DNA of 64,000 nt from an uncultured Bacteroidota bacterium (GTDB lineage Bacteria; Bacteroidota; Bacteroidia; UKL13-3). Location: the NCBI GenBank assembly GCA_903901345.1, contig CAIUQQ010000216.1, forward strand, positions 3,420 through 67,419, given 5' to 3'. Under the pieces are notes generated by a model, which was not told the DNA's origin, did not search any database, and was given only the letters and a program-made list of their open reading frames with translations. Shown here one piece after another: positions 6,498 to 55,222 of the stretch. Position 1 is the first letter of the stretch; every line of letters begins with the position of its first letter. A program made the translations under genes and the position numbers.

Positions 6498-8714
6498 ATG
6501 CCAACTAAATATCTATTCTTACTAATCACTTTTTTAAGTTTTGTTGTTTCATCATTTTCTCAAACAAATACCAGAAAATGGCGTAAAACCGAAAATGACT
6601 CTATGGAACGTTCATTGCTACTTTACTACGAGGCAAATTATATCATGGCATTGCCTATTTATGAGAAATTGTATTCAGCACATCCAAAAGAAGAATATTT
6701 GAAGTATTGTTATGGACGTTGTGCTTTATATAGGAGTGATAAGCATAATGTAGCTTTAAGTTTATTGAATGAAGTGTATCAAAAAAACAAAAAAATTGAA
6801 AATATAAAATTTGATTTAGCTAAAGCCAATCATTTTAACTTAAAATTTGACGAAGCTCTGACTCTTTTGGATGAATTTTTGGCGGACAAAAAAGTAAAAC
6901 CAGAAATAAAAAAAGAAGCTAATCAATTAAAGTTATATTGTATTAACGCTAAGAAGTTTTTTGCTAATCCAACCAATGCCAAAATTGAAAATGTTGGAAA
7001 CACAATAAATACAGTTAATGATGAGTATGTTCCTGTTATTTCTGCAGATGAATCTATTATGATATATACTTACAGAGGTACTCAAAGCATGGGTGGATTA
7101 CAAGACGCTTTCCAACAAATAGATCCTTATGGTTTTTATTATGAAGATGTTTATCAATCTAACAAAGAAAATGGACAATGGACAAAACCTAACCCCATCT
7201 CAACTATTAATACTAATTCGCACGATGCGGCCATAGCCTTAAGTGCCGATGGCCAACAATTATTTGTATATAAAGATAATGCAGACGATCATGGTGATAT
7301 TTATGTAATTTATTTTGCAAATAATGCGTGGACTGTTCCTCAAAAATTAAGAGGTGAGGTAAACTCTTATTCATGGGATGGAAGTTGTTCGATGACTGCC
7401 GATGGAAAACAATTATATTATAGTAGCGAGCGTGGTGGTGGTTATGGTGGAAAAGATATTTACAGAGCAACCTTACAACCTGATAGCACTTGGGGTCAAG
7501 TGATAAACTTGGGTGATAGTATCAATACAGCTTTGGATGATGATGCGCCTTTTATTCATCCTGATGGTGTAACATTGTTTTATAGCTCTAAAGGAAAAAA
7601 TAGTATGGGAGGATACGATATTTTTCAAGCTCGGTTAAATATATTAGATTCTTCGTTCAATCAGCCCGTAAATTTAGGTTATCCTATCAATACACCTGAT
7701 GATGACATTTACTATGTTCTTTCTGCTAATGGAGAACGAGGTTATTATGCCTCTGGAAAACAAGGTGGCTATGGCTTAAAAGATATTTATACAGTTTACC
7801 CAGGTTATGTTGGAAAAAAACCATCTTTATTTATTGTTAAAGGTAAAATTACTGTCGACTTACAGCCTGTGGAATCAAATATTACTGTGGAAATAACAAG
7901 TAAAAACAATAATCAATTTGGCGAATTTAAAAGTAATTCTTTGAATGGGAATTATTTGATTTCTTTACCTGCTGGTGGTATTTTTAATATAACTTATAAG
8001 TACAATAAATTCCCACATAAATCAATAGAAATTAACACAATGAACTTAGAAGGATATGATGAAAAGTTATATGATATAGAGTTCAATAATAAGGATACAA
8101 CAAAACCTATTGCAACTCTTGCGCCTAAAGATTCAATTGTTGCTGTTGTTGTAGTAAAAGATGTAGTAAAAGAAAAAGATGTGAAGAAGGAAGAAGTAAA
8201 GAAAGCAATTACAAAAAAAGAAGATGTAACGCAACCAATAGTAAAGAAAGAATTAGTAAAACAATCGTTTGTTAAAAAGGAAGAACCGAAACCTTCCATT
8301 GCAAAAAAAGAACAATTACCTATTGAGAAACAACCTGTTATTATAGTTCGCAAAAAAGAAGGCTCTGTTCCACGAAATGCGGCTCAACAAAAAAACAGAG
8401 TGTATAGCGAACTTTATTCTGATATCAGTGCAGAAGGATTAGAATTTAAAGTACAAATTGCTGCTTATAAATATCCTAAAAATTATTTATACATACATTT
8501 AAAAGGTTTAGGTGCTATACAAAATTTAATACTTAATGATGATATTACTCGAATTACCATCGGTGGATCATTTAACACTATTGGTAAAGCATACGAACGA
8601 TGTGAAAAGGTAATAGCTGCTGGTCAAAATGATGCCTTTGTCACAGTAATATACAAAGGAAAACGAATCTATTTAGAAGATTTAGAAACGATGGGGATTT
8701 ATGTAAAAAAGTAA
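6498..8714 (+). CDS. Exported multidomain protein: N-terminal TPR-like region, TolB-like (PD40/WD40-like) beta-propeller repeats, Lys/Glu/Val-rich low-complexity linker, C-terminal SPOR-like domain
   Basis: Signal peptide. Repeated ...DxxPxxxxDGxxLYFSS... PD40-like units (LFVYKDNADDHGDIY, LYYSSERGGGYGGKDIY, LFYSSKGKNSMGGYDIF). KKE/VKK repeats at nt ~8150-8350. C-terminal FKVQIAAYKYPKN resembles the SPOR-domain core. Confidence 0.6.
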   Translation: MPTKYLFLLITFLSFVVSSFSQTNTRKWRKTENDSMERSLLLYYEANYIMALPIYEKLYSAHPKEEYLKYCYGRCALYRSDKHNVALSLLNEVYQKNKKIENIKFDLAKANHFNLKFDEALTLLDEFLADKKVKPEIKKEANQLKLYCINAKKFFANPTNAKIENVGNTINTVNDEYVPVISADESIMIYTYRGTQSMGGLQDAFQQIDPYGFYYEDVYQSNKENGQWTKPNPISTINTNSHDAAIALSADGQQLFVYKDNADDHGDIYVIYFANNAWTVPQKLRGEVNSYSWDGSCSMTADGKQLYYSSERGGGYGGKDIYRATLQPDSTWGQVINLGDSINTALDDDAPFIHPDGVTLFYSSKGKNSMGGYDIFQARLNILDSSFNQPVNLGYPINTPDDDIYYVLSANGERGYYASGKQGGYGLKDIYTVYPGYVGKKPSLFIVKGKITVDLQPVESNITVEITSKNNNQFGEFKSNSLNGNYLISLPAGGIFNITYKYNKFPHKSIEINTMNLEGYDEKLYDIEFNNKDTTKPIATLAPKDSIVAVVVVKDVVKEKDVKKEEVKKAITKKEDVTQPIVKKELVKQSFVKKEEPKPSIAKKEQLPIEKQPVIIVRKKEGSVPRNAAQQKNRVYSELYSDISAEGLEFKVQIAAYKYPKNYLYIHLKGLGAIQNLILNDDITRITIGGSFNTIGKAYERCEKVIAAGQNDAFVTVIYKGKRIYLEDLETMGIYVKK

Positions 8715-8914
8715 CCATAAACTTTTAAGAAGGTTAACTCCCAGTAGATTTAATAAGCCAATTGATTTGATTTAGATTATAGTAAAAGAGATTTAATAAT
8801 GTACTATTATTAGACAGCTAATTTATTATTTTGAAAATGATAAATAATTTAGAGTCTGTTAAAATTTATATTGTAATAATTGTTATGAAGTATTTTTGAG
8901 CGAATTGCTCTTAA

Positions 8915-47060: not shown

Positions 47061-47134
47061 GGCCCCGTAGCTCAGCTGGATAGAGCAACAGCCTTCTAAG
47101 CTGTGGGCCATTGGTTCGAATCCAATCGGGGTCA
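47061..47134 (+). tRNA. tRNA-Arg (anticodon TCT)
   Basis: Manual cloverleaf: acceptor GGCCCCG/CGGGGTC; D-arm GCTC-AGCTGGATA-GAGC; anticodon arm ACAGC-CTTCTAA-GCTGT; T-arm ATTGG-TTCGAAT-CCAAT; discriminator A. No encoded CCA. Confidence 0.9.
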
Positions 47135-47150
47135 CGATTAAACAACTAAA

Positions 47151-47184
47151 AAGCCTGTAAATCAATAGATTACAGGCTTTTTTC
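47151..47184 (+). terminator. Intrinsic terminator of the tRNA-Arg gene
   Basis: Perfect 10-bp inverted repeat AAGCCTGTAA...TTACAGGCTT followed by TTTTT. Confidence 0.75.
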
Positions 47185-47285
47185 ATAAAGAGGGTAAACA
47201 TAGGGTAAACATTTCGTTTTTTCCTCTCATAACGCTCACTTACTTTAATTTTCACAAGCACATAATTCATCTATGCTTATACTAT
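47170..47285 (+). promoter_or_regulatory. Repeated regulatory module, copy A: terminator 3' half, tandem direct repeat AGGGTAAACAT x2, conserved box CTCACTTACTTTAATTTTC (possible -7 promoter element)
   Basis: Shares roughly 110 nt with the second copy at 51.15 kb. The tandem decamers sit at 47191-47212 and the conserved box at 47236-47254. Confidence 0.4.
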
Positions 47286-47573
47286 GGATAATTTATGTAC
47301 TTACTATAAATACTATTTACTTTTTGATACGAAGTGTTAGCAAGTAATGCAAACGCAACGGATTAGTTAAGGACTTGAGATGGAGATATTTTAGGAGATA
47401 AAACTCAGATATTTACTATGGAGTTTTTTAATATTACATAAATTTCAGAGTAATTTATGTATTTTAGTTCTGCGATATACAAATTTATTGAAAGGTAAAG
47501 TATAGAAATAAAGTTGGTGCATATAGAAGAAGTTTGAAACATAAAGAATTAGCTAAAATTAAAAACATAGATC

Positions 47574-48551
47574 ATGAAACACAATAATTCAGATTATAAA
47601 AAAACATTTTATTACTGGCCTTTTATAGAAAATAATGTAATTGTAGCAACGCTCAAATACCCAAACTCTTTAGTAGATTATATAGAAAATTTGATTTTTG
47701 ATGTTATTGAAAAAAGAAACCTTATTGAAAAAAGAATTGTTTTCCTTGTTGACAATTTATGGACAAAACAGTTATTGCAAAGTTTATTGTTATGTCGTAA
47801 GGTTATAGATAACGATAATAATATTTTAAATACAACTAATCAAATTACTATTGTTGAAATAACAAATGATTTTGATAATGTAATTTATAAATCTATTGGC
47901 GGCAACATTAATGAAATTATTTATGAAGCAGATACATTTATTCTTATTGATTTTAATGTTTTAATGAATGATAGCAATGAACTTCTTGAACGATTAAGAG
48001 TTTATTGGAAAAATAAATTATGGATTGGAGTAGGACTAAATAATGAAAAAGACACTATTAGATTATTAAGTTTTGGCGAAGAATACATAAACTATTTGCC
48101 AGATTCCCCAGAAACGTTTGAAGGATTTGTAAATGAAGATGTATTAAAGGGGATAGAAAATATTTTAGTATCATTAGGTGATAATGAAGACTCTGGTATA
48201 TTTTCTAAACACTTTTATGGTGAGATTTTTACAGAAGAAAATGACTATACTTTAGCAATAGGAACGAGTGATTTGGTTGAGTGTGAATACGAAGAAGAAG
48301 ATGGCGAAAATGATGAAAACTATGGTGATGATGAAAAATCTTTTTGCGTTGCTATTTTAATTACTAAATATAAATTAGAGCTTTCAATAGAATTACAAGA
48401 TTATGATTGGGATGGCACAGTCTATTTGAATTATAAAATTGACTTTGAAAGTGATATTTATGAAGAAGGCGATATTGGAAAGATAGACGATTTGGTTGAA
48501 GAAATTTGCGAACGAATTAATTCTCAGAAAATAAATGTTCGATTATCTTAA
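47574..48551 (+). CDS. Hypothetical acidic protein (325 aa, D/E-rich C-terminal half)
   Basis: Long ORF at about 27% GC with no recognisable family. First gene after copy A of the module. Confidence 0.5.
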   Translation: MKHNNSDYKKTFYYWPFIENNVIVATLKYPNSLVDYIENLIFDVIEKRNLIEKRIVFLVDNLWTKQLLQSLLLCRKVIDNDNNILNTTNQITIVEITNDFDNVIYKSIGGNINEIIYEADTFILIDFNVLMNDSNELLERLRVYWKNKLWIGVGLNNEKDTIRLLSFGEEYINYLPDSPETFEGFVNEDVLKGIENILVSLGDNEDSGIFSKHFYGEIFTEENDYTLAIGTSDLVECEYEEEDGENDENYGDDEKSFCVAILITKYKLELSIELQDYDWDGTVYLNYKIDFESDIYEEGDIGKIDDLVEEICERINSQKINVRLS

Positions 48552-48662
48552 TATTACATAGGATTGAAACATACAGTGATTGAGTCAGTTTGGTGTATTA
48601 TTAAATTTATAAAAACTAAAAAACTAGCGATTTCGGATTATTAATATTTCAATAAAATTAAG

Positions 48663-49220
48663 ATGGGTGAAAAAGAAAAATACTTTGAAGAGCTAAATAT
48701 TAGCTTCGAAAAGTACCTCAAAACAAAAAGTATATATTCCTTCAAGCAAGTCAAAGGCAAAATGAAGGAGGGCGAGAATAAGTATAAATTTATTTTTAGA
48801 GATTACTATTGGTGGCATCCAAAATGGAGTGTGGCAGATTTTGAAAAATCACTTTCCGATGACGTTAAATTGTTAAAGAGTTTGTGGTCAAAATGGCGAA
48901 AAGTGCATAGAAGTTATGAGGATATGGTATTAAGCAATGAATTATATGCTTTGCATTACCAAGTGTCTTTAAATTTAACAAAAAAATGCGAACACAAATT
49001 TAAAAATGGCAAATATTATTTGGTAAAATCCAACAATAGAGTGTACTTGCATTTTGCTGAATTATTTATTGAATCAGAAAAAAAAATAGCCAGTTCAAGG
49101 CCCGAACCCACAGTAAAATCTAAACCCAAGAAATTTGATGATATCAGGGAATATGCCAAACAACTAAAAAGAGAGATTAGACCAAAAAAACGATTTGATG
49201 TCAGGCTACTCGAAGTTTAA
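48663..49220 (+). CDS. Hypothetical basic protein (185 aa)
   Basis: ORF with a Lys/Arg-rich C-terminus and no known motif. Confidence 0.45.
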   Translation: MGEKEKYFEELNISFEKYLKTKSIYSFKQVKGKMKEGENKYKFIFRDYYWWHPKWSVADFEKSLSDDVKLLKSLWSKWRKVHRSYEDMVLSNELYALHYQVSLNLTKKCEHKFKNGKYYLVKSNNRVYLHFAELFIESEKKIASSRPEPTVKSKPKKFDDIREYAKQLKREIRPKKRFDVRLLEV

Positions 49221-49247
49221 TACGATTATATAAATAAGCCAAAGAAA

Positions 49248-49466
49248 ATGGATGAAGTAGTTAAAAACGAGTTATCAAAATTAAATATGTATGAGGTTAT
49301 TTGCGCTGATGCATTAAGTCAATTACATTTAAATAACCCACAACAATTGGTGGACTTTGAAAAAGATAAAATTATATCATTGTTAAAAAGAATGTTTGAT
49401 GCAGAGAGAGAATACTTAATTGATGAATCTGATGATTATTTAGAAATTTATAAAGAAGAAATTTAA
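49248..49466 (+). CDS. Hypothetical small acidic protein (72 aa)
   Basis: Short ORF closely spaced inside the operon. Confidence 0.35.
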   Translation: MDEVVKNELSKLNMYEVICADALSQLHLNNPQQLVDFEKDKIISLLKRMFDAEREYLIDESDDYLEIYKEEI

Positions 49467-49488
49467 TTTAACTTATTCATCCTTACAA

Positions 49489-50454
49489 ATGGACAACATA
49501 AAAAAAATATTAAAGTCAAAATTAAATTGTGAATCTGTAAATTCTGAAATAGTAGAATTTGATAATGATAATGATTTTCTTCCTAAAAGAGGTAAAATAA
49601 AATTTGATTTTGTAATCAAAAACAATAATAAAATTGAGGCATTAGGTTTAAAAGTTCAGGAAACAGACCTTGACAGTTATGTAAAAGGAATTATTGAAAA
49701 AATACCAAATAATTTTGAATACCCCGTCTTTTATATATCATCAATTAATAATAGCGGTTTATTAACCAGGAATTTGTATTCTTCAGAAAAAATAATGAAT
49801 TTATCAAAGAGACCTGAATATGACATTTTTGAAAACCGTGATGTAATTTATTATGACCATTTAGATAAATTAATATTTGATATTAAAGACCTTTGCAAGG
49901 ACTTAATGAATGAAGAAGATTTTGAATTTCGTGAATTAGCAAGAGAAGTTAAAAATCTACAATGGAAATTAAAGGATAGCGAAAAAAAATATATCAACGA
50001 GAATAATAGTTTAAAGTCAGAAAATAACTATCAAAAAGAAAAGTTAGAAAAACTTGAAATAAAGATTAACAAATACATTAAAACTGATAAAACAAAAACT
50101 ATGTTTGCTATTAGTAATTGTTTGTTTATAACAGAACTAAAAGGAGCAATAAAAAAACTAAAGCTCCCGGAAAGTAATGAAATTAAGTCTGATATAAAAA
50201 CTGGTTACGGATATAATGAAAAATATTCAGTTACAAATTTCATTGATAATAATCATTTTGAATTTTATTTAGGTAATATATCAAATAAATTTTATTTAGT
50301 TCTAGAATCTTATACATGGGTTGCTGAATATAGTAGCAATGTACCCACTACTAATTATTATTATTGTTATGATGATATAAACAATCATTTTACTCTAGTT
50401 AATGGAAATGAGGTAGAGGATATTTTAACATGGATTCCGTTGAAGGATTTTTAA
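49489..50454 (+). CDS. Hypothetical coiled-coil protein (321 aa)
   Basis: Central K/E-rich coiled coil. No family recognised. Confidence 0.45.
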   Translation: MDNIKKILKSKLNCESVNSEIVEFDNDNDFLPKRGKIKFDFVIKNNNKIEALGLKVQETDLDSYVKGIIEKIPNNFEYPVFYISSINNSGLLTRNLYSSEKIMNLSKRPEYDIFENRDVIYYDHLDKLIFDIKDLCKDLMNEEDFEFRELAREVKNLQWKLKDSEKKYINENNSLKSENNYQKEKLEKLEIKINKYIKTDKTKTMFAISNCLFITELKGAIKKLKLPESNEIKSDIKTGYGYNEKYSVTNFIDNNHFEFYLGNISNKFYLVLESYTWVAEYSSNVPTTNYYYCYDDINNHFTLVNGNEVEDILTWIPLKDF

Positions 50455-50570
50455 TTTAATGCTCTTATTATTATAACCTGAAGGTCTTAATTTTATTAGA
50501 TTATATAACAAATCTTTTTTCTAAGGAATATTATTTACCTCGCATCTAAAAATATTTTAAAATTTACATT

Positions 50571-51086
50571 TTGAGTGTTAGTGCAAAAGATATTTTTTAC
50601 TGTATCGCAATTACATTTGTGGTTACATATTGTCCTTCTCTCTATGTCCCTATCCATTTACCATTTGAAGTAAATTTAATTAGTGCTTCTATCTCGATTC
50701 TGAAGTCAATTTTGGAAGAATTTATTTTTCGTTTTTTATTATTAGCCATATGTTGTAATTACTTTGGAATGTTGCAAAGTTTAATAGTATCATCATTACT
50801 TTTTTCATATGCCCATTTTGAATTTAATTGGTTTCAAATAAACTATTTTCTTTTCATTTCAAAATTTACAAGTGGTTTATATTATGGATGGGCATATCTA
50901 TCAACCCGTTCAATAATTGTCCCAATAACTATGCACATTTTGTGGAATATTGCAACTATCCCATTTGAAAAGGTTATTGCGACTGAAACTTCGGTTATCG
51001 AAGTTTATGTTAAAATAACAATTTTGATTTTGGTAGTTATTTATTATAAATATCCAGTAAAGAAGCTTTCTTTAATTCATTATTAA
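50571..51086 (+). CDS. CPBP-family (CAAX/Abi-like) intramembrane glutamic endopeptidase, short form
   Basis: EEFIFRFLLL (EExxxR), FSYAHFEFNW (FxxxH) and MHILWN (HxxxN) motifs within 4-5 TM helices. Probable TTG start. Confidence 0.65.
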   Translation: MSVSAKDIFYCIAITFVVTYCPSLYVPIHLPFEVNLISASISILKSILEEFIFRFLLLAICCNYFGMLQSLIVSSLLFSYAHFEFNWFQINYFLFISKFTSGLYYGWAYLSTRSIIVPITMHILWNIATIPFEKVIATETSVIEVYVKITILILVVIYYKYPVKKLSLIHY

Positions 51087-51480: not shown

Positions 51481-52230
51481 ATGGCTCAACAAAAAGGCAT
51501 TATAAAGCTAAAAGGAAAAATCGGAGATATTTCCTTTTACAAAACACAAGACGGCCATTTGGCTCGTGAAAAAGGAGGAGTAGATGCTTCACGCATCGCT
51601 AACGATCCTGCTTTTATTCGCACCCGTGAAAATGGTGTAGAATTCGGTTCATCTGCTAGTTCAGGCAAATTGCTAAGAAGTTCATTAAGAAGTATGTTAA
51701 TGACTGCTGGCGATAACAGAGTAACGGCTCGATTAACCAAAACAATGACTGATATTAAAAATTTGGATGCAACATCAGTGCGAGGAAAAAGAACTGTGGG
51801 AATTGCTATTGCTTTAGCGCCAGCTAAAGCGTTGTTAAAAGGTTTTAATTTTAATAATAAGGCAATATTAGGCAGCATCTTATTTAAACCTTATGCAGTA
51901 GCAACAGCCACAGGAATCATTACCATTACAGGACTCGTTCCACTTACTGATATTGCTTTTCCGGAAGGTGCAACGCATGTTAGTTTTAAAAGCTCTTGGG
52001 CAAAGGTGGATTTTACAAATAATGTTTCGGATGTTAAATTATCGAATGTTGTTAATTTGCCAATTAATGCGGTATCGGCTAACGTTGTTTTAACTCCAAC
52101 TGCAGCAGCTGTAGGAACAGGAATAAACTTGTTTGTATTGCAACTGGAGTTTTTTCAATTGGTTAATGCTATTCAGTACACCATGAAAAACGGAACATAC
52201 AATGCGTTATGCATTGTTGAGGTAAGCTAA
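51481..52230 (+). CDS. Hypothetical protein (249 aa, Ala/Thr/Val-rich, beta-rich)
   Basis: First gene after copy B of the module. Composition resembles a phage-structural protein, but no family was recognised. Confidence 0.5.
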   Translation: MAQQKGIIKLKGKIGDISFYKTQDGHLAREKGGVDASRIANDPAFIRTRENGVEFGSSASSGKLLRSSLRSMLMTAGDNRVTARLTKTMTDIKNLDATSVRGKRTVGIAIALAPAKALLKGFNFNNKAILGSILFKPYAVATATGIITITGLVPLTDIAFPEGATHVSFKSSWAKVDFTNNVSDVKLSNVVNLPINAVSANVVLTPTAAAVGTGINLFVLQLEFFQLVNAIQYTMKNGTYNALCIVEVS

Positions 52231-52234
52231 ACAG

Positions 52235-52651
52235 ATGGAATTATTACTCATTAGAACATATGATGTTGTAGGGATCAATGGCACGCTTTATAATTGTGAA
52301 AAAAGTATCTGCCATACGATTGAATTACCCTGGAAAGAAAATCAAAAAATGATTTCCTGTATTCCAGAAGGTCGTTATGAAATTGTAAAAAGATATAATG
52401 CCAAATTTAAATGGCATTTCATACTTATGAACGTGCCAAATAGGTCCTTTATTTTAATTCATCCGGCTAATGATGCGCTTAAAGAATTGAAAGGGTGCAT
52501 TGCACCAGTTTTAGTTTTAGCAGCAGCAGGAAAAGGATATGAATCAAAAAAAGCATTAAAGAGTTTAATTTCTATTATTTACCCTTTACTGGATCAAAAA
52601 GAAAAAATTTATCTAACTATTAAATCAAAACCAAACAATGAGACTCATTGA
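52235..52651 (+). CDS. Small conserved Cys/His protein with a YkuD/L,D-transpeptidase-like motif (possibly the DUF5675 family); putative cell-wall-active enzyme
   Basis: ILIHPANDALKELKGCIAPV resembles the H...(S/T)xGC(I/V) catalytic signature of L,D-transpeptidase-fold enzymes. Additional conserved Cys in CEKSICHTIELPW and SCIPEGRY. Confidence 0.4.
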   Translation: MELLLIRTYDVVGINGTLYNCEKSICHTIELPWKENQKMISCIPEGRYEIVKRYNAKFKWHFILMNVPNRSFILIHPANDALKELKGCIAPVLVLAAAGKGYESKKALKSLISIIYPLLDQKEKIYLTIKSKPNNETH

Positions 52652-52883
52652 CAGATTAAAAGCACCAACACCTAAGTTTTTTAAAGTATTAAGAAATATT
52701 GGTTTAGGATTAGCCGCTGCAGGCGGTGTAATAGTTGCATCGCCAATTGCCATCCCTACAATTATTATAACCATAGGTGGTTATTTAATTGTAGCAGGAA
52801 GTGTAGCAACTGCAGTAAGCCAAATAGTAACAACTACTGAAGGCGATGCTTCGACAAGCACTGCAAACCAAAAAAATAACTGA
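52638..52883 (+). CDS. Small two-TM membrane protein (holin-like topology, 81 aa)
   Basis: Two hydrophobic helices (IGLGLAAAGGVIVASPIAI / IIITIGGYLIVAGSVATAV) and a polar tail. Overlaps the upstream gene by 14 nt. Confidence 0.45.
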   Translation: MRLIDRLKAPTPKFFKVLRNIGLGLAAAGGVIVASPIAIPTIIITIGGYLIVAGSVATAVSQIVTTTEGDASTSTANQKNN

Positions 52884-52910
52884 GTATTAATTATTAAAAT
52901 CATTATTAAA

Positions 52911-53249
52911 ATGACTGAAGAAAAAAATCAAATCGAAAAAACTCAAACTATTGTTGAGTTACAAGTTTTGCCATGTGCTAACGAAGTGGCACCAGCAAAA
53001 CAAAATGTTGAGGTATTAAACCACGAAAATCAAGATGATCCACCATGTGGTAAAATCATCTTAACAGTTACTTGTAACGGATCAAAATTAACTAAAGCAG
53101 ATTCTGGACTCGTTGAAGAATTTCAGGAAGAAGTTTGGGTGACAGTAAAAACAACAAAAGCGGATGCAGGTATTGTACCAAATATTGATTTAAGTGTTCA
53201 TGAAAGATGCACAACAAAAATGACAAAGGCTGATTCCGGTATTGCTTAA
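52911..53249 (+). CDS. Hypothetical acidic protein with three TKADSG-type repeats and four Cys (112 aa)
   Basis: Repeats LTKADSGLV / TTKADAGIV / MTKADSGIA. No signal peptide. Confidence 0.45.
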   Translation: MTEEKNQIEKTQTIVELQVLPCANEVAPAKQNVEVLNHENQDDPPCGKIILTVTCNGSKLTKADSGLVEEFQEEVWVTVKTTKADAGIVPNIDLSVHERCTTKMTKADSGIA

Positions 53250-53259
53250 AAACTAAATT

Positions 53260-53445
53260 ATGTCAACACATCATAACATAGAAAGCGGAACTATCATGGG
53301 CACTGTTTCAGGAACAGTCTTAACTGTATTAGTGAACATAGGTTCATCGGATATTATTAAAACAGTTGTCCTTGCTGTACTTGGTGCAGTGGTTAGTTTT
53401 GGAGTTTCTTTATTGTTAAAGTGGTTACTCCGAAAGTTTAAGTAA
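53260..53445 (+). CDS. Small two-TM membrane protein with a basic C-terminus (holin/antiholin-like, 61 aa)
   Basis: Hydrophobic helices VSGTVLTVLVNIG and VVLAVLGAVVSFGVSLLL, followed by KWLLRKFK. Confidence 0.4.
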   Translation: MSTHHNIESGTIMGTVSGTVLTVLVNIGSSDIIKTVVLAVLGAVVSFGVSLLLKWLLRKFK

Positions 53446-53497: not shown

Positions 53498-53920
53498 TTA
53501 CTTTTTTAAATATTTATAAAATAAAGCTTTGCGCAATTGCATTAAATAATCTAATTGTTGATTTAGATTAGTTTGCAAATTTTCAATTTGTGCTAATGTA
53601 TTTTGAACATCAGAAAATGAACGATTGCCGGTATTAACTGAGTTTAAAGTTTCTTCAATTACATCAATAACATCACCTAAGCGAATATATTCGATAACTG
53701 AGCCTTTTAGATGTTTACGAAATAAACGAAGCTCCCATAAGCCTAATAATAAGAAATAGTAAAACTCTTTTTCTTCTTTATTATCTGCCAAAAACACAAA
53801 TGAATTGCATACATAGTGATTAAATGGTTTACCAGAATTTAGACCTTTGTTTAAAATAAAGAAATGTTGTTGTTGATACATTTTACCTGATTTGTGTGTT
53901 TTGATTTTTGATTTTAACAT
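53498..53920 (-). CDS. Hypothetical protein with a C-terminal coiled coil (140 aa)
   Basis: ORF convergent with the terminator. A weak resemblance to the coiled-coil spacer of HsdS-like specificity subunits (AQIENLQTNLNQQLDYLMQLRKALF) is speculative. Confidence 0.35.
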   Translation of the reverse strand: MLKSKIKTHKSGKMYQQQHFFILNKGLNSGKPFNHYVCNSFVFLADNKEEKEFYYFLLLGLWELRLFRKHLKGSVIEYIRLGDVIDVIEETLNSVNTGNRSFSDVQNTLAQIENLQTNLNQQLDYLMQLRKALFYKYLKK

Positions 53921-54289
53921 GATGATTTTTTTAAAGGGTTTGTATCCCTTTTTTCATCTTGTGTTTTGAACCTGTTTACTACTAATTTGAAAACAAAGAA
54001 AAAACCCAAAAAAACGAGCTAAATAAAAGCCCGAAAAAAATGAAAAAAGAAAGCATTTTGAAAAGGCTGAACACTGAGGTTGCCAAGATTTTTGACAAAA
54101 AAAATACTACCTGAATGCGGCAGTATTAATAAACCTTTTACCTTAAATAATGCCGCATGAAGTGTGGAGATTATTTTTGCAAAACCCGAAGGGCTTGACC
54201 TTGCAATCCGAAAGTGGAAAGACTTAAATTGCGCCTCTTTTTTTATTTTGGAATAATTTACCTGTTACTGCATTCTATTTTTAAAATAA

Positions 54290-54830
54290 ACATCAATTGA
54301 AATGTAGAGGTAAAAGCGCCCGCGGCGTGGGAAGGAAAACGGTTGCAAAAAATGAAGTGAGGTACGAACAAAATGATTTGCAATCCGTTGTGCGGCGAGC
54401 CACCTGCGAGTGGAGAGAGGGTGTGCAGCATGGGAGCTTGAGGTACGAAAGCGGATGCAAACTATGTTGCAAGTGTGGCAAAAAGCCCCCTACATTTCCC
54501 CCAGAGGGGGAAGGCAAAAAGGCATGCCACACGATAGCAACACAAGTGCATTTTTGTTGCAATGATTTTATTGCGCTACAAAACAAAAATGCACGAAGCC
54601 CGAGCGACTATGCAGGCGAGCTGAAAAGTTGGTAGCCGGTGGACTGAAAGTGGCTGAGATGAATGAAGTGCAATGGCACCCAGTGGAAGTAGTGAAACGG
54701 ATGTAACGGGTGAATAATGGAGCGAAATGAATGAAGTGGCTTGAAGGACAGGATAGGCTACCGTGACGAAAGCACTGTGCAACGAGCAAAAAATGTGACA
54801 AACTAAAAACCCGAAGGGCAAAATAGCTTA
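54290..54830. ncRNA. Candidate large structured non-coding RNA or other non-coding element: GC-rich (>50% GC) island with stable hairpins and internal direct repeats; strand undetermined
   Basis: GC content jumps sharply against a roughly 30% background. Both strands show stop-free ORFs translating to low-complexity nonsense. 13-bp perfect stem GTGCATTTTTGTT...AACAAAAATGCAC (54546-54596). CCCCCAGAGGGGG hairpin (54489-54501). Many GNRA-like GAAA loops. Direct repeats TGAGGTACGAA x2 and AATGAATGAAGTG x2. Flanked by AAACCCGAAGGGC at 54182 and 54808. Confidence 0.3.
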
Positions 54831-55222
54831 TGCTAAAAGCCTTGAAAAGACTTAGTTAAAGCATGTGCTATTTTGGTTTGGCGCAATTTGTTGCTTGCAC
54901 CTGCTGAGGAACACCACTTTACCTTTTTCTTATTGAAATAGACGACTCAAACTGCAATATTAATTATAGTATTAAATGATGCACTTTATTGAATTGTACT
55001 AATTTCAGTTTCAAGTATTTTCACTTGAACTCGCAATTTTTTTTACTGTTTCTTAGTACTGCTTCGTTTGTAAGTTTATCTCCATTGCTAGTTTAAAGAA
55101 TAACTGCTAAAAAAATAAGACTATGCGTTAAAAAAAAGGGTAGGCAAGAATTTTAATTGAATGTGCATGCTAAAGTAAACTATTAAAAAAAATTAGTTTA
55201 AAAGATTTTTCATTTTAATATA

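Follow-up and report, generated by a model that had tools for sequence, protein, structure and literature searches.

What is a block of about 620 GC-rich nucleotides, in which no gene can be recognized, doing in an AT-rich bacterial genome? The block lies in a stretch of 64,000 nucleotides of contig CAIUQQ010000216.1 (assembly GCA_903901345.1) from an uncultured Bacteroidota bacterium; this whole stretch is called the window below, and all unmarked coordinates refer to it. A first-pass annotation, made from the sequence alone, had pointed to an abrupt rise in GC content at 54170-54870 and had proposed a large structured RNA of no known family, with a replication origin or a degraded high-GC gene as alternatives. 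Here we describe the element as a discrete + strand unit at 54306-54926, about 620 nt long and about 50% GC in a genome of 31% GC. Judged from sequence, it is best read as a member of a new class of large structured non-coding RNA (ncRNA) that forms a backbone gene of Bacteroidota integrative elements and plasmids. We put the probability that 54306-54926 is a structured ncRNA gene at roughly 0.75.

Limits and conserved fold of the element

The reported rise in GC is real: GC content is 0.485-0.51 across 54300-54800 and mostly 0.20-0.30 in the flanks (200-nt windows), and the 500-nt bins of the element (0.402 and 0.420) are the maximum of the whole 64 kb. The + strand has an excess of purines (A 204, G 180, U 129 and C 115 in 628 nt) and a GC skew of +0.2 to +0.37, the G-rich strand being the presumed transcript strand. 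Relatives were found through a spurious open reading frame (ORF) of 112 amino acids, whose translation matched ten "proteins" without domains in a protein collection; the contigs of these ten carry the same DNA element. Homology to the window ends on the right at 54924-54929 in every related contig, and on the left exactly at 54309 in loci L008 and L010, beside unrelated genes. These limits hold irrespective of the adjoining DNA. Since homology stops at shared positions, the unit extends from 54306/54309 to 54923/54926, and the range first proposed was shifted. An nhmmer profile matches 54303-54928 (E 6e-183) and finds a single copy in the window, with conservation fading within a few nucleotides outside the terminal helix, P1.

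Six overlapping ORFs of at least 40 amino acids cover the element on both strands, and the earlier judgment that none is credible was borne out. The ORF "homologues" have no Pfam domain, no frame is conserved, indels are not multiples of three (a 25-nt insertion falls in the 112-amino acid ORF), and substitutions are compensatory between paired positions, not codon-like. A protein-coding gene or pseudogene, including the degraded high-GC gene once considered, was rejected on these grounds.

Against shuffled sequences, the minimum free energy gives z-scores of -4.3 (+ strand) and -3.7 (- strand). In a first alignment, an invariant core was broken up by hairpins that differ wholly in sequence and length among relatives. 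Covariation was analyzed with 30 aligned homologues that share 54-91% identity with the window; RNAalifold predicted 89 pairs for them, 49 with compensatory double changes, and adding the terminal helix and refolding gave a final structure of 149 pairs in 27 helices. Sliding the partners by 1-3 columns and 500 shuffles served as controls. In the 149-pair structure, 92.6% of cells are paired (34-44% with slid partners), 74 pairs are changed on both sides (25-31 slid), 348 cells have both-side changes (39-63 slid) and the covariation score is 0.245 (0.04-0.06 slid); none of the 500 shuffles reaches the observed value by any measure. The fold is kept at identities down to 54%, and peripheral hairpins are swapped wholesale between homologues and are still hairpins. 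Unpaired purine-rich joiners are invariant, and multi-way junctions link the 27 helices over 620 nt.

Paired columns contain 225 G-U or U-G cells and 54 A-C or C-A cells, an excess that marks the + strand as the strand under selection to fold. The element thus has the properties of a structured ncRNA, a base-paired architecture conserved through compensatory substitutions on one strand. Covariation, strand-specific G-U pairing and variable hairpin arms all support the large structured RNA proposed at first pass.

Within the paired ends, the RNA has four domains: a 5' domain, a core with an invariant motif and two variable arms (V1 and V2), a G-A-rich central arm and a long nested 3' domain (Table 1). 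P1 differs by compensatory changes across subfamilies, from GGUAAA/UUUACC in the window to GGUUAUA/UAUAACC, CGCAGGUAAA/UUUACCUGCG and CACAGGAAAA/UUUUCCUGUG. Compensation in the 5' domain (helices 2-5) includes UA/CG at columns 43/120 and AU/GC at columns 52/111, and its tip carries a 25-nt insertion in relatives. All pairs are compensatory in core helices 9 (4/4) and 10 (5/5), as are six of eight in V1 (helices 11-12), 20 of 26 in the central arm (helices 13-19) and, in the 3' domain, 8 of 17 in helix 23 and 11 of 16 in helix 25. L004, L006 and L007 have an unrelated, AT-rich sequence in place of the V1 tip. V2 has a wholly different sequence in the great majority of the 30 homologues, with the long hairpin kept, and the arm is missing in L039 and L042. 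In our reading of the central arm, the direct repeats of AUGAAUGAAGUG may face each other, with 2-bp Watson-Crick steps alternating with G-A/A-G mismatches.

Table 1. Features of the element and its surroundings, in window coordinates
Feature	Position	Strand	Remarks
P249 - DUF5675 - TM80 - P112 - TM61 operon	51481-53445	+	Conserved far-side neighbour
DUF6943 gene	53498-53920	-	Conserved divergent neighbour; Pfam PF22105, E 9e-40
Terminator-like hairpin and T-run	54103-54127; second at 54015-54033	-	Pattern match
Upstream partial copy of RNA 3' domain (AAAACCCGAAGGGC ... TGGAAAGACTTA ... AAATTGCGCC)	54181-54235	+	Outside the RNA, about 75 nt before it
TCAATTG, candidate Bacteroidota-type -7 box	54293-54299	+	9 nt before the terminal helix; consensus match
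P1 5' strand, GGUAAAA	54309-54315, extendable 54306-54314 (AGAGGUAAA)	+	Pairs with 54917-54923
5' domain	54317-54397	+	Helices 54317-54327/54389-54397 and 54340-54353/54373-54387; tip length variable
Near-invariant core motif, GCGAGCC-A-CCUGCGAG-U-GGAG-AGA-GGGUG	54395-54423	+	Nearly all homologues, all subfamilies
Core domain	54399-54621	+	Closed by long-range helix 54399-54413/54605-54621
Core inner helices	54419-54422/54598-54601; 54423-54431/54455-54462; hairpin 54436-54452	+	Helices 6-10 set
Variable arm V1	54465-54542	+	Stems UGUUGC/GCAACA and GUGUGGCA/UGCCACAC; CCCCC-AGA-GGGGG tip 54498-54510
Variable arm V2	54546-54594	+	13-bp perfect stem 54546-54558/54582-54594 at its base
Central arm	54631-54762	+	Closed by GGUAGCC/GGCUACC; long irregular helix, AUGAAUGAAGUG on both strands
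3' domain	54763-54914	+	Nested long-range helices 54763-54765/54912-54914, 54767-54781/54896-54908, 54786-54803/54876-54894
3' domain hairpins	Small 54810-54818; long 54819-54835/54859-54875	+	Helices 20-27 set
P1 3' strand, CUUUACC	54917-54923, extendable 54918-54926	+	Pairs with 54309-54315

The repeats and stems listed at first pass were all found, with small coordinate slips. TGAGGTACGAA occurs at 54358 and 54439, and ATGAATGAAGTG at 54659 and 54727. The 13-bp perfect stem exists and its first arm is where it had been placed; its second arm had been put 2 nt too far right. The CCCCC-AGA-GGGGG hairpin is present as well, and had been given as 54489-54501. Both copies of AAACCCGAAGGGC were recovered, at 54182 and 54807 (2 copies versus 0.01 expected by chance), each followed by a T(G/A)GAAAGACTTA-like sequence, at 54215 and 54843. 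They do not bracket the element as had been claimed, because the left copy lies outside the conserved unit. As att sites these direct repeats were rejected, the left copy being outside the element and confined to close relatives. The partial copy of the 3' domain upstream of the RNA is kept only in the close relatives of the window and is absent from L008 and L010. The final 10 nt of this copy, AAATTGCGCC, form a perfect complement to 54880-54889 of the RNA itself. The copy may be a relic, or it may give a small RNA that acts as competitor or decoy.

Searches against known families agree with the earlier statement that the element resembles none of them. Rfam 15 cmscan of the whole window returned tRNA-Arg only, RNase P, tmRNA, SRP and 6S RNA being among the families without a match. 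In a permissive Rfam scan (E up to 10) of 53900-55200, the best match was Phe_leader (E 0.39), on the - strand and outside the element, and inside 54306-54926 there were chance-level fragments alone (E at least 3.8). On 12 loci with divergent homologues, nothing at the gathering score overlapped the RNA. ROOL, GOLLD, OLE, raiA, HEARO and all other Rfam 15 families were rejected for lack of a covariance-model match.

Specific candidates were rejected as follows. For RNase P, tmRNA, SRP and 6S RNA, there is no Rfam or ARAGORN match, and the element resides in mobile DNA and on plasmids, with two copies in several metagenome-assembled genomes (MAGs). An ORF-less group II intron would begin with GUGYG, and the 5' end of the element is GGUAAAAG; neither Intron_gpII nor group-II-D1D4 matches the element. 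The same models detect a real intron in L067, so the intron test works. Retron msr-msd and DRT-type ncRNAs were dismissed because the reverse transcriptase (RT) domain is absent among the neighbours scanned in the window and related loci. A type III toxin-antitoxin (ToxI-like) RNA does not fit either, as TRF found no tandem array and the neighbours are divergent or convergent and variable. The replication-origin alternative of the first-pass annotation, an iteron origin, failed on the absence of tandem or regularly spaced repeats (TRF), the GC-rich region and the absence of an adjacent rep gene.

Distribution and genomic setting

Loci were collected by scanning one genome per species with a 12-sequence alignment of DUF6943, the divergent neighbour of the element in the window and in all of the contigs first found to be related; this gave 79 Bacteroidota loci. 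Iterated nhmmer found the element in 60 of the 79, and in 59 of these 60 the RNA lies upstream of DUF6943, on the opposite strand and 0.3-4.8 kb away. By organism name, the DUF6943-seeded loci belong to Cytophagales, Sphingobacteriales, Flavobacteriales, Chitinophagales and Bacteroidales; the RNA profile confirms as carriers, among others, Algoriphagus, Sphingobacterium, Winogradskyella, Gynurincola and Bacteroidales MAGs. Cultured carriers include Winogradskyella arenosi CECT 7958 (L088), Algoriphagus formosus (L073), Sphingobacterium lumbrici (L087), Cyclobacterium lianum, Fontibacter flavus and Fulvitalea axinellae DSM 100852. Metagenomes were searched independently of any protein, with the core-motif pattern GCGAGCC-N1-3-CUGCGAG-N-GGAG-N3-4-GGGUG. 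More than 120 contigs match it, and all 80 examined carry the true element. The family ranges in size from 0.5 to 0.85 kb and is widespread in Bacteroidota integrative elements and plasmids. A divergent copy is present on three Fulvitalea axinellae plasmids (pFA9, pFA10 and NZ_AP025326.1), on pFA9 in a 1.6-kb gap without an annotated gene; DprA, of an ssDNA (single-stranded DNA)-binding family, is encoded 3-4 kb upstream on pFA9 and pFA10, the two plasmids whose annotation was read. None of 50,697 phage records matches the element at the DNA level, and IMG/VR has one true match among six motif matches; a phage origin was rejected on these counts. The mobile-element setting near a tRNA gene suggested at first pass stands, without its implied link to phages.

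Gene-family clustering revealed a recurrent layout. In the orientation of the RNA, the chromosome is followed by P249, (DUF5675), TM80 and P112 genes, all pointing rightwards, then by DUF6943 pointing leftwards, zero to four cargo genes, the RNA pointing rightwards, and further cargo. In one subfamily the left part is replaced by DUF6266 and DUF6943 genes, both pointing leftwards. Of 28 RNA-seeded metagenome loci whose 5' flank is 3 kb or longer, 21 have DUF6943, P249 or DUF6266, always on the 5' side and in one orientation (DUF6943 and DUF6266 on the strand opposite the RNA, P249 on the same strand). Housekeeping genes occur directly beyond P249 in L013, L016, L035 and L041, and L036 has the flanking gene families of L035. 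P249 therefore marks one end of the element that carries the RNA, and in the window the P249 operon is the probable end of a mobile element.

On the 3' side, the first downstream genes are mostly convergent and 2-200 nt away. In 11 of 33 unbiased RNA-seeded loci, the genes that converge on the RNA 3' end are two for XerC/D-like tyrosine recombinases, in tandem, one for a DnaG-like Toprim protein and an HTH gene; the distance is 12-120 nt, or up to about 700 nt with an intervening ORF6N gene. AbiE, SMODS/CBASS-like genes, pAgo with Schlafen, zeta toxin, HigB, a Tox-MPTase3 toxin pair and mer genes are among the cargo present on one side or the other; the window has a TPR protein and an MZA-type anti-phage cluster, and other loci differ in cargo at the same junction. 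Co-transcription of cargo from an RNA promoter was rejected, as gene orientations are mixed and mostly convergent.

A subfamily with near-identical RNA core, DUF6943 and DUF6266 spans genera of different orders. Its loci are L048, L050, L053, L055, L059-L062, L068, L073, L084, L085 and L089, and its hosts are Algoriphagus, Fontibacter, Cyclobacterium, Gynurincola, Penaeicola, Schleiferiaceae and Bacteroidales UBA4814. Such near-identity across orders implies recent horizontal transfer, and the arsR, merT and cation-efflux genes beside the RNA point to a recently spreading metal-resistance element. Five MAGs have two DUF6943 loci each (L015/L016, L013/L034, L017/L024, L021/L033 and L029/L036). 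Both loci carry the RNA in four of the five, as clearly different subtypes (e.g., 81% and 60% identity to the window), so divergent element copies co-reside in one genome; in L021/L033 only L021 carries it.

The sharp ends of the element, with inverted-repeat termini that change together, its variable flanks and the two copies in several MAGs (L015/L016, L013/L034) are also features of a miniature inverted-repeat transposable element (MITE), that is, a non-autonomous transposon of about 620 bp with termini GGTAAA...TTTACC that inserts into mobile elements. We regard this as very improbable. It is opposed by the internal compensatory changes at 74 pairs and the fold kept at 54% identity, by the fixed side and orientation relative to DUF6943, P249 and DUF6266, and by the copy number, a single one at each locus and in the 64-kb window. 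The junctions show no target-site duplication, and no transposase is associated.

The limit right after P1, followed by differing islands, may also be viewed as that of a stable RNA gene into which islands integrate, in the manner of tRNA and tmRNA genes; insertion at the 3' end of the gene would then account for the variable cargo there. Integrases are found on the 3' side in L001 and the Xer-type loci, and in L067 a group II intron starts some 55 nt downstream of the RNA. This explanation is unlikely, as the direct repeat expected from insertion, a duplicated RNA 3' fragment downstream (attB signature), was found in no locus, the available flanks being short, and cargo is present 5' of the RNA as well, in the interval up to DUF6943. 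It would, besides, account for the context and not for the job of the RNA. The L067 intron itself (1044-2005, - strand) matches Rfam D1D4-7 and domain V/VI models, and a second intron 5' part lies at 7636-7977 of that locus.

Among the neighbour proteins, DUF6943 has an AlphaFold2 model (pLDDT 95) with a target-recognition-domain (TRD)-like beta domain and a long helix, and the best PDB folds are S subunits of type I restriction-modification (R-M) systems and a methyltransferase (7eew, 1ydx, 7vs4; E 8e-3 to 9e-2). This suggests that DUF6943 may be a half-HsdS-like DNA-binding, coiled-coil protein. HsdS, the type I R-M specificity subunit, is the closest fold; unlike HsdS, DUF6943 corresponds to one half-subunit of 140 amino acids, has no adjacent HsdM or HsdR, and belongs to Pfam DUF6943 and not to Methylase_S. 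P249, which has 3801 homologues, lacks a Pfam domain, and its beta-sandwich model is uninformative; the idea that it is a distant DUF6266 was rejected for lack of BLASTP similarity. DUF6943, P249, DUF5675 and DUF6266 have no PADLOC or NCBIfam match and were rejected as known defence proteins. Literature searches found no mention of DUF6943, DUF6266 or such an RNA.

Several further observations concern the neighbourhood. The window, which is chromosomal and about 31% GC, has a tRNA-Arg(tct) gene at 47061-47135. Downstream of this gene, within 47061-51086, come a terminator hairpin and four low-GC ORFs (325, 185, 321 and 171 amino acids); the first three have no family match, apart from one weak NB-ARC match, and the fourth matches a PHROG of unknown function. 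The segment is probably an island junction, and a repeat of the tRNA-Arg 3' end that would mark the island boundary was not found within the 64-kb window. P112 (52911-53249, + strand), a 112-amino acid protein with three TKAD(S/A)G(I/L) repeats, is encoded between two small membrane proteins, in a cassette downstream of the DUF5675 gene (YkuD-like motif HxxxxGC) that has a lysis- or peptide-like flavour. The terminator-like hairpins on the - strand (Table 1) would stop leftward transcription before DUF6943. A long A/G-rich tract between DUF6943 and the RNA (53975-54060) recurs upstream of DUF6943 in an RNA-less locus (L072, 4890-4960) and upstream of the RNA on Fulvitalea plasmid pFA9 (L216, about 8680-8730). 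In RNA-less DUF6943 loci L046, L063, L072 and L079, an HTH_17 (excisionase-like) gene occupies the position of the RNA; these loci also have a 268-amino acid P249 variant, directly convergent, and a staphylococcal-nuclease gene, followed in L063 by an integrase.

RNA or single-stranded DNA

The -7 promoter element of Bacteroidota is TAnnTTTG. The candidate box in the window is TCAATTG, and TTG ends 9-10 nt before P1 in 16 of 51 non-redundant homologues with AT-rich flanks; TTG within the -11 to -6 window occurs in 20 of the 51, versus a background mean of 6.4 and maximum of 13. This enrichment fits the consensus. The first downstream gene is convergent in 24 of 32 unbiased loci. Together, the G-U excess, TTG enrichment and convergent downstream genes favour, short of proof, an RNA made from the + strand, which would be transcribed rightwards from the -7-type box. 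In subfamilies with GC-rich flanks, conserved G-runs are located just outside P1 on both strands: GGGGUGGGUGGUCGGGGG upstream of P1 in L119, L134, L162, L164 and L170, and GUGGGGGG..UUUG downstream of P1 in L163, L016 and L041; L216 has G-runs as well. These could be 5' or 3' extensions, G-quadruplex-forming tracts or R-loop-forming tracts.

The main rival, to which we give a much smaller but real share of the probability, is that the fold acts in ssDNA, as a cis-acting site that the mobile element uses after excision or transfer. Single-strand origins or priming signals, ssDNA promoters and folded XerC/D-like recombination sites, comparable to integron attC and CTX phage attP(+), are candidates. 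Like the element, attC and attP(+) conserve structure over sequence, fold in a strand-specific manner and have variable cassettes on both sides and, as in some element loci, adjacent XerC/D- or IntI-like recombinase genes. The cluster of two XerC/D-like recombinases and a DnaG-like Toprim protein near the 3' end in 11 of 33 unbiased loci agrees with such a role, as do the cassette-like arrangement of sharp limits at P1 with differing cargo on both sides, and the occurrence of one copy per plasmid on three plasmids of one strain, with DprA near on pFA9 and pFA10. Covariation and G-T asymmetry would look alike under either explanation.

Size and architecture, however, do not fit. Known ssDNA sites are single hairpins, of 57-141 nt for attC and about 150-330 nt for sso and Frpo, and they are exceeded by 27 helices, multi-way junctions and invariant joiners over 620 nt. 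Unlike attC, the element also has a promoter-like box, at a fixed distance before P1, and in two thirds of the loci no recombinase is adjacent. Furthermore, no relaxase or conjugation genes were seen in the loci examined, and no 3'-end repeat marks a second att site within reach.

Another possibility is that a cis-acting or antisense regulatory RNA is made here, whose synthesis, termination or read-through controls DUF6943 or the convergent downstream genes (the recombinase operon or cargo). The close, mostly convergent downstream genes, the two - strand terminators between the element and DUF6943, and the divergent arrangement with DUF6943 in 59 of 60 genome loci are compatible with this. We nonetheless consider it improbable. 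Flanking genes vary by locus on both sides, the RNA and DUF6943 can be as much as 4.5 kb apart with unrelated cargo in between, the RNA has no conserved complementarity to any neighbour, and 620 nt with paired ends and 149 conserved pairs far exceed what an antisense or leader RNA needs.

Several points weigh against a trans-acting ncRNA gene linked to DUF6943. The 149-pair structure was predicted from the same alignment that scored it. The shuffles take no account of phylogeny; sliding the partners preserves relatedness, and the values so obtained are still far lower than those observed. Several helices of the core do not vary and are hence uninformative (e.g., helix 6). G-T wobble is tolerated in folded ssDNA too, so strand asymmetry is no proof of RNA. 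Promoter support consists of motif enrichment, and subfamilies with GC-rich flanks have no box. About 25% of RNA loci have no DUF6943, P249 or DUF6266 within 3 kb or more, and about 15 evaluable DUF6943 loci have no RNA within 5 kb, with an HTH_17 gene there instead. Finally, the fold match of DUF6943 is weak (E 8e-3, TM 0.39-0.40). An RNA gene, with the ribonucleoprotein (RNP) role set out below as the much less certain part, is nevertheless the explanation that we favour, at somewhat better than even odds overall.

Possible role and significance

The paired ends of the RNA suggest a stable, trans-acting molecule; they would make it stable as in RNase P, 6S RNA and other long-lived RNAs. Because the RNA and DUF6943 are linked reciprocally and in a fixed orientation, they may work jointly as an RNP. 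The RNA may act in trans as the scaffold or a subunit of an element-encoded RNP, with a half-HsdS-like DUF6943 dimer as the likeliest protein partner, in the element's own DNA transactions or maintenance and not in the regulation of one neighbouring gene. Any specific RNP role of this kind is tentative, and less likely than not. More speculative still is an RNP machine in which the RNA is the nucleic-acid subunit and, with a DUF6943 dimer and possibly P249 or DUF6266, directs or licenses the DNA transactions of the element. Such a machine would serve cargo capture at the two hotspots flanking the RNA gene, or XerC/D-like integration and excision.

ROOL, GOLLD and OLE are large "ornate" bacterial ncRNAs with Rfam families and cryo-electron microscopy structures (PMC12286853). 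Like the element, they are 0.5-0.8 kb long, with many helices, variable peripheral arms and an unknown biochemical function; ROOL and GOLLD occur in prophages or islands, often near tRNA genes, and OLE has dedicated partner-protein genes adjoining. Unlike them, the element has no covariance-model relationship to any of the three, occurs in Bacteroidota, in integrative elements and plasmids and not phages, and has its own neighbours (DUF6943, P249/DUF6266, and the Xer-like pair with the primase). Homo-oligomeric cages have been shown for ROOL, GOLLD and OLE. The family is absent from the databases searched and the literature found, and resembles these RNAs in kind only.

The omega RNAs of HEARO/IscB and TnpB and the bridge RNA of IS110, each of which guides a protein, are likewise structured, encoded in mobile DNA beside a protein gene, and end sharply at variable DNA. 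Unlike these, the element has no IscB, TnpB or IS110-type gene nearby and no Rfam match, and its size is two to four times theirs; with both ends paired, it offers no obvious single-stranded guide segment. The ColE1-type replication primer RNA II is similar as a structured transcript of about 550 nt on a replicon with the G-rich strand transcribed, and the element is found on plasmids and, in some loci, next to a primase gene. Unlike RNA II, the element has paired ends (P1) and no identified antisense RNA I-like gene or origin, and it is also found on chromosomally integrated elements.

To our knowledge, bacterial ncRNAs above 500 nt with complex conserved folds are rare, with only about a dozen classes known. 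Large-RNA classes studied so far do unusual things, as ribozymes, RNA-guided nucleases, RNA nanocages and membrane RNPs. The family described here adds to this short list a new, testable large-RNA class. It is abundant, with at least 140 independent loci in five or more Bacteroidota orders, cultured strains included, and keeps one and the same position in mobile elements by which anti-phage systems, toxins and metal resistance are carried from order to order. The family also gives entry to an integrative-element family without a description in the literature searched, together with its cargo hotspots, and offers a first functional lead for three orphan protein families, DUF6943, DUF6266 and P249. 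If the proposed RNP machine exists, it would be a new kind of RNA-dependent recombination or maintenance system.

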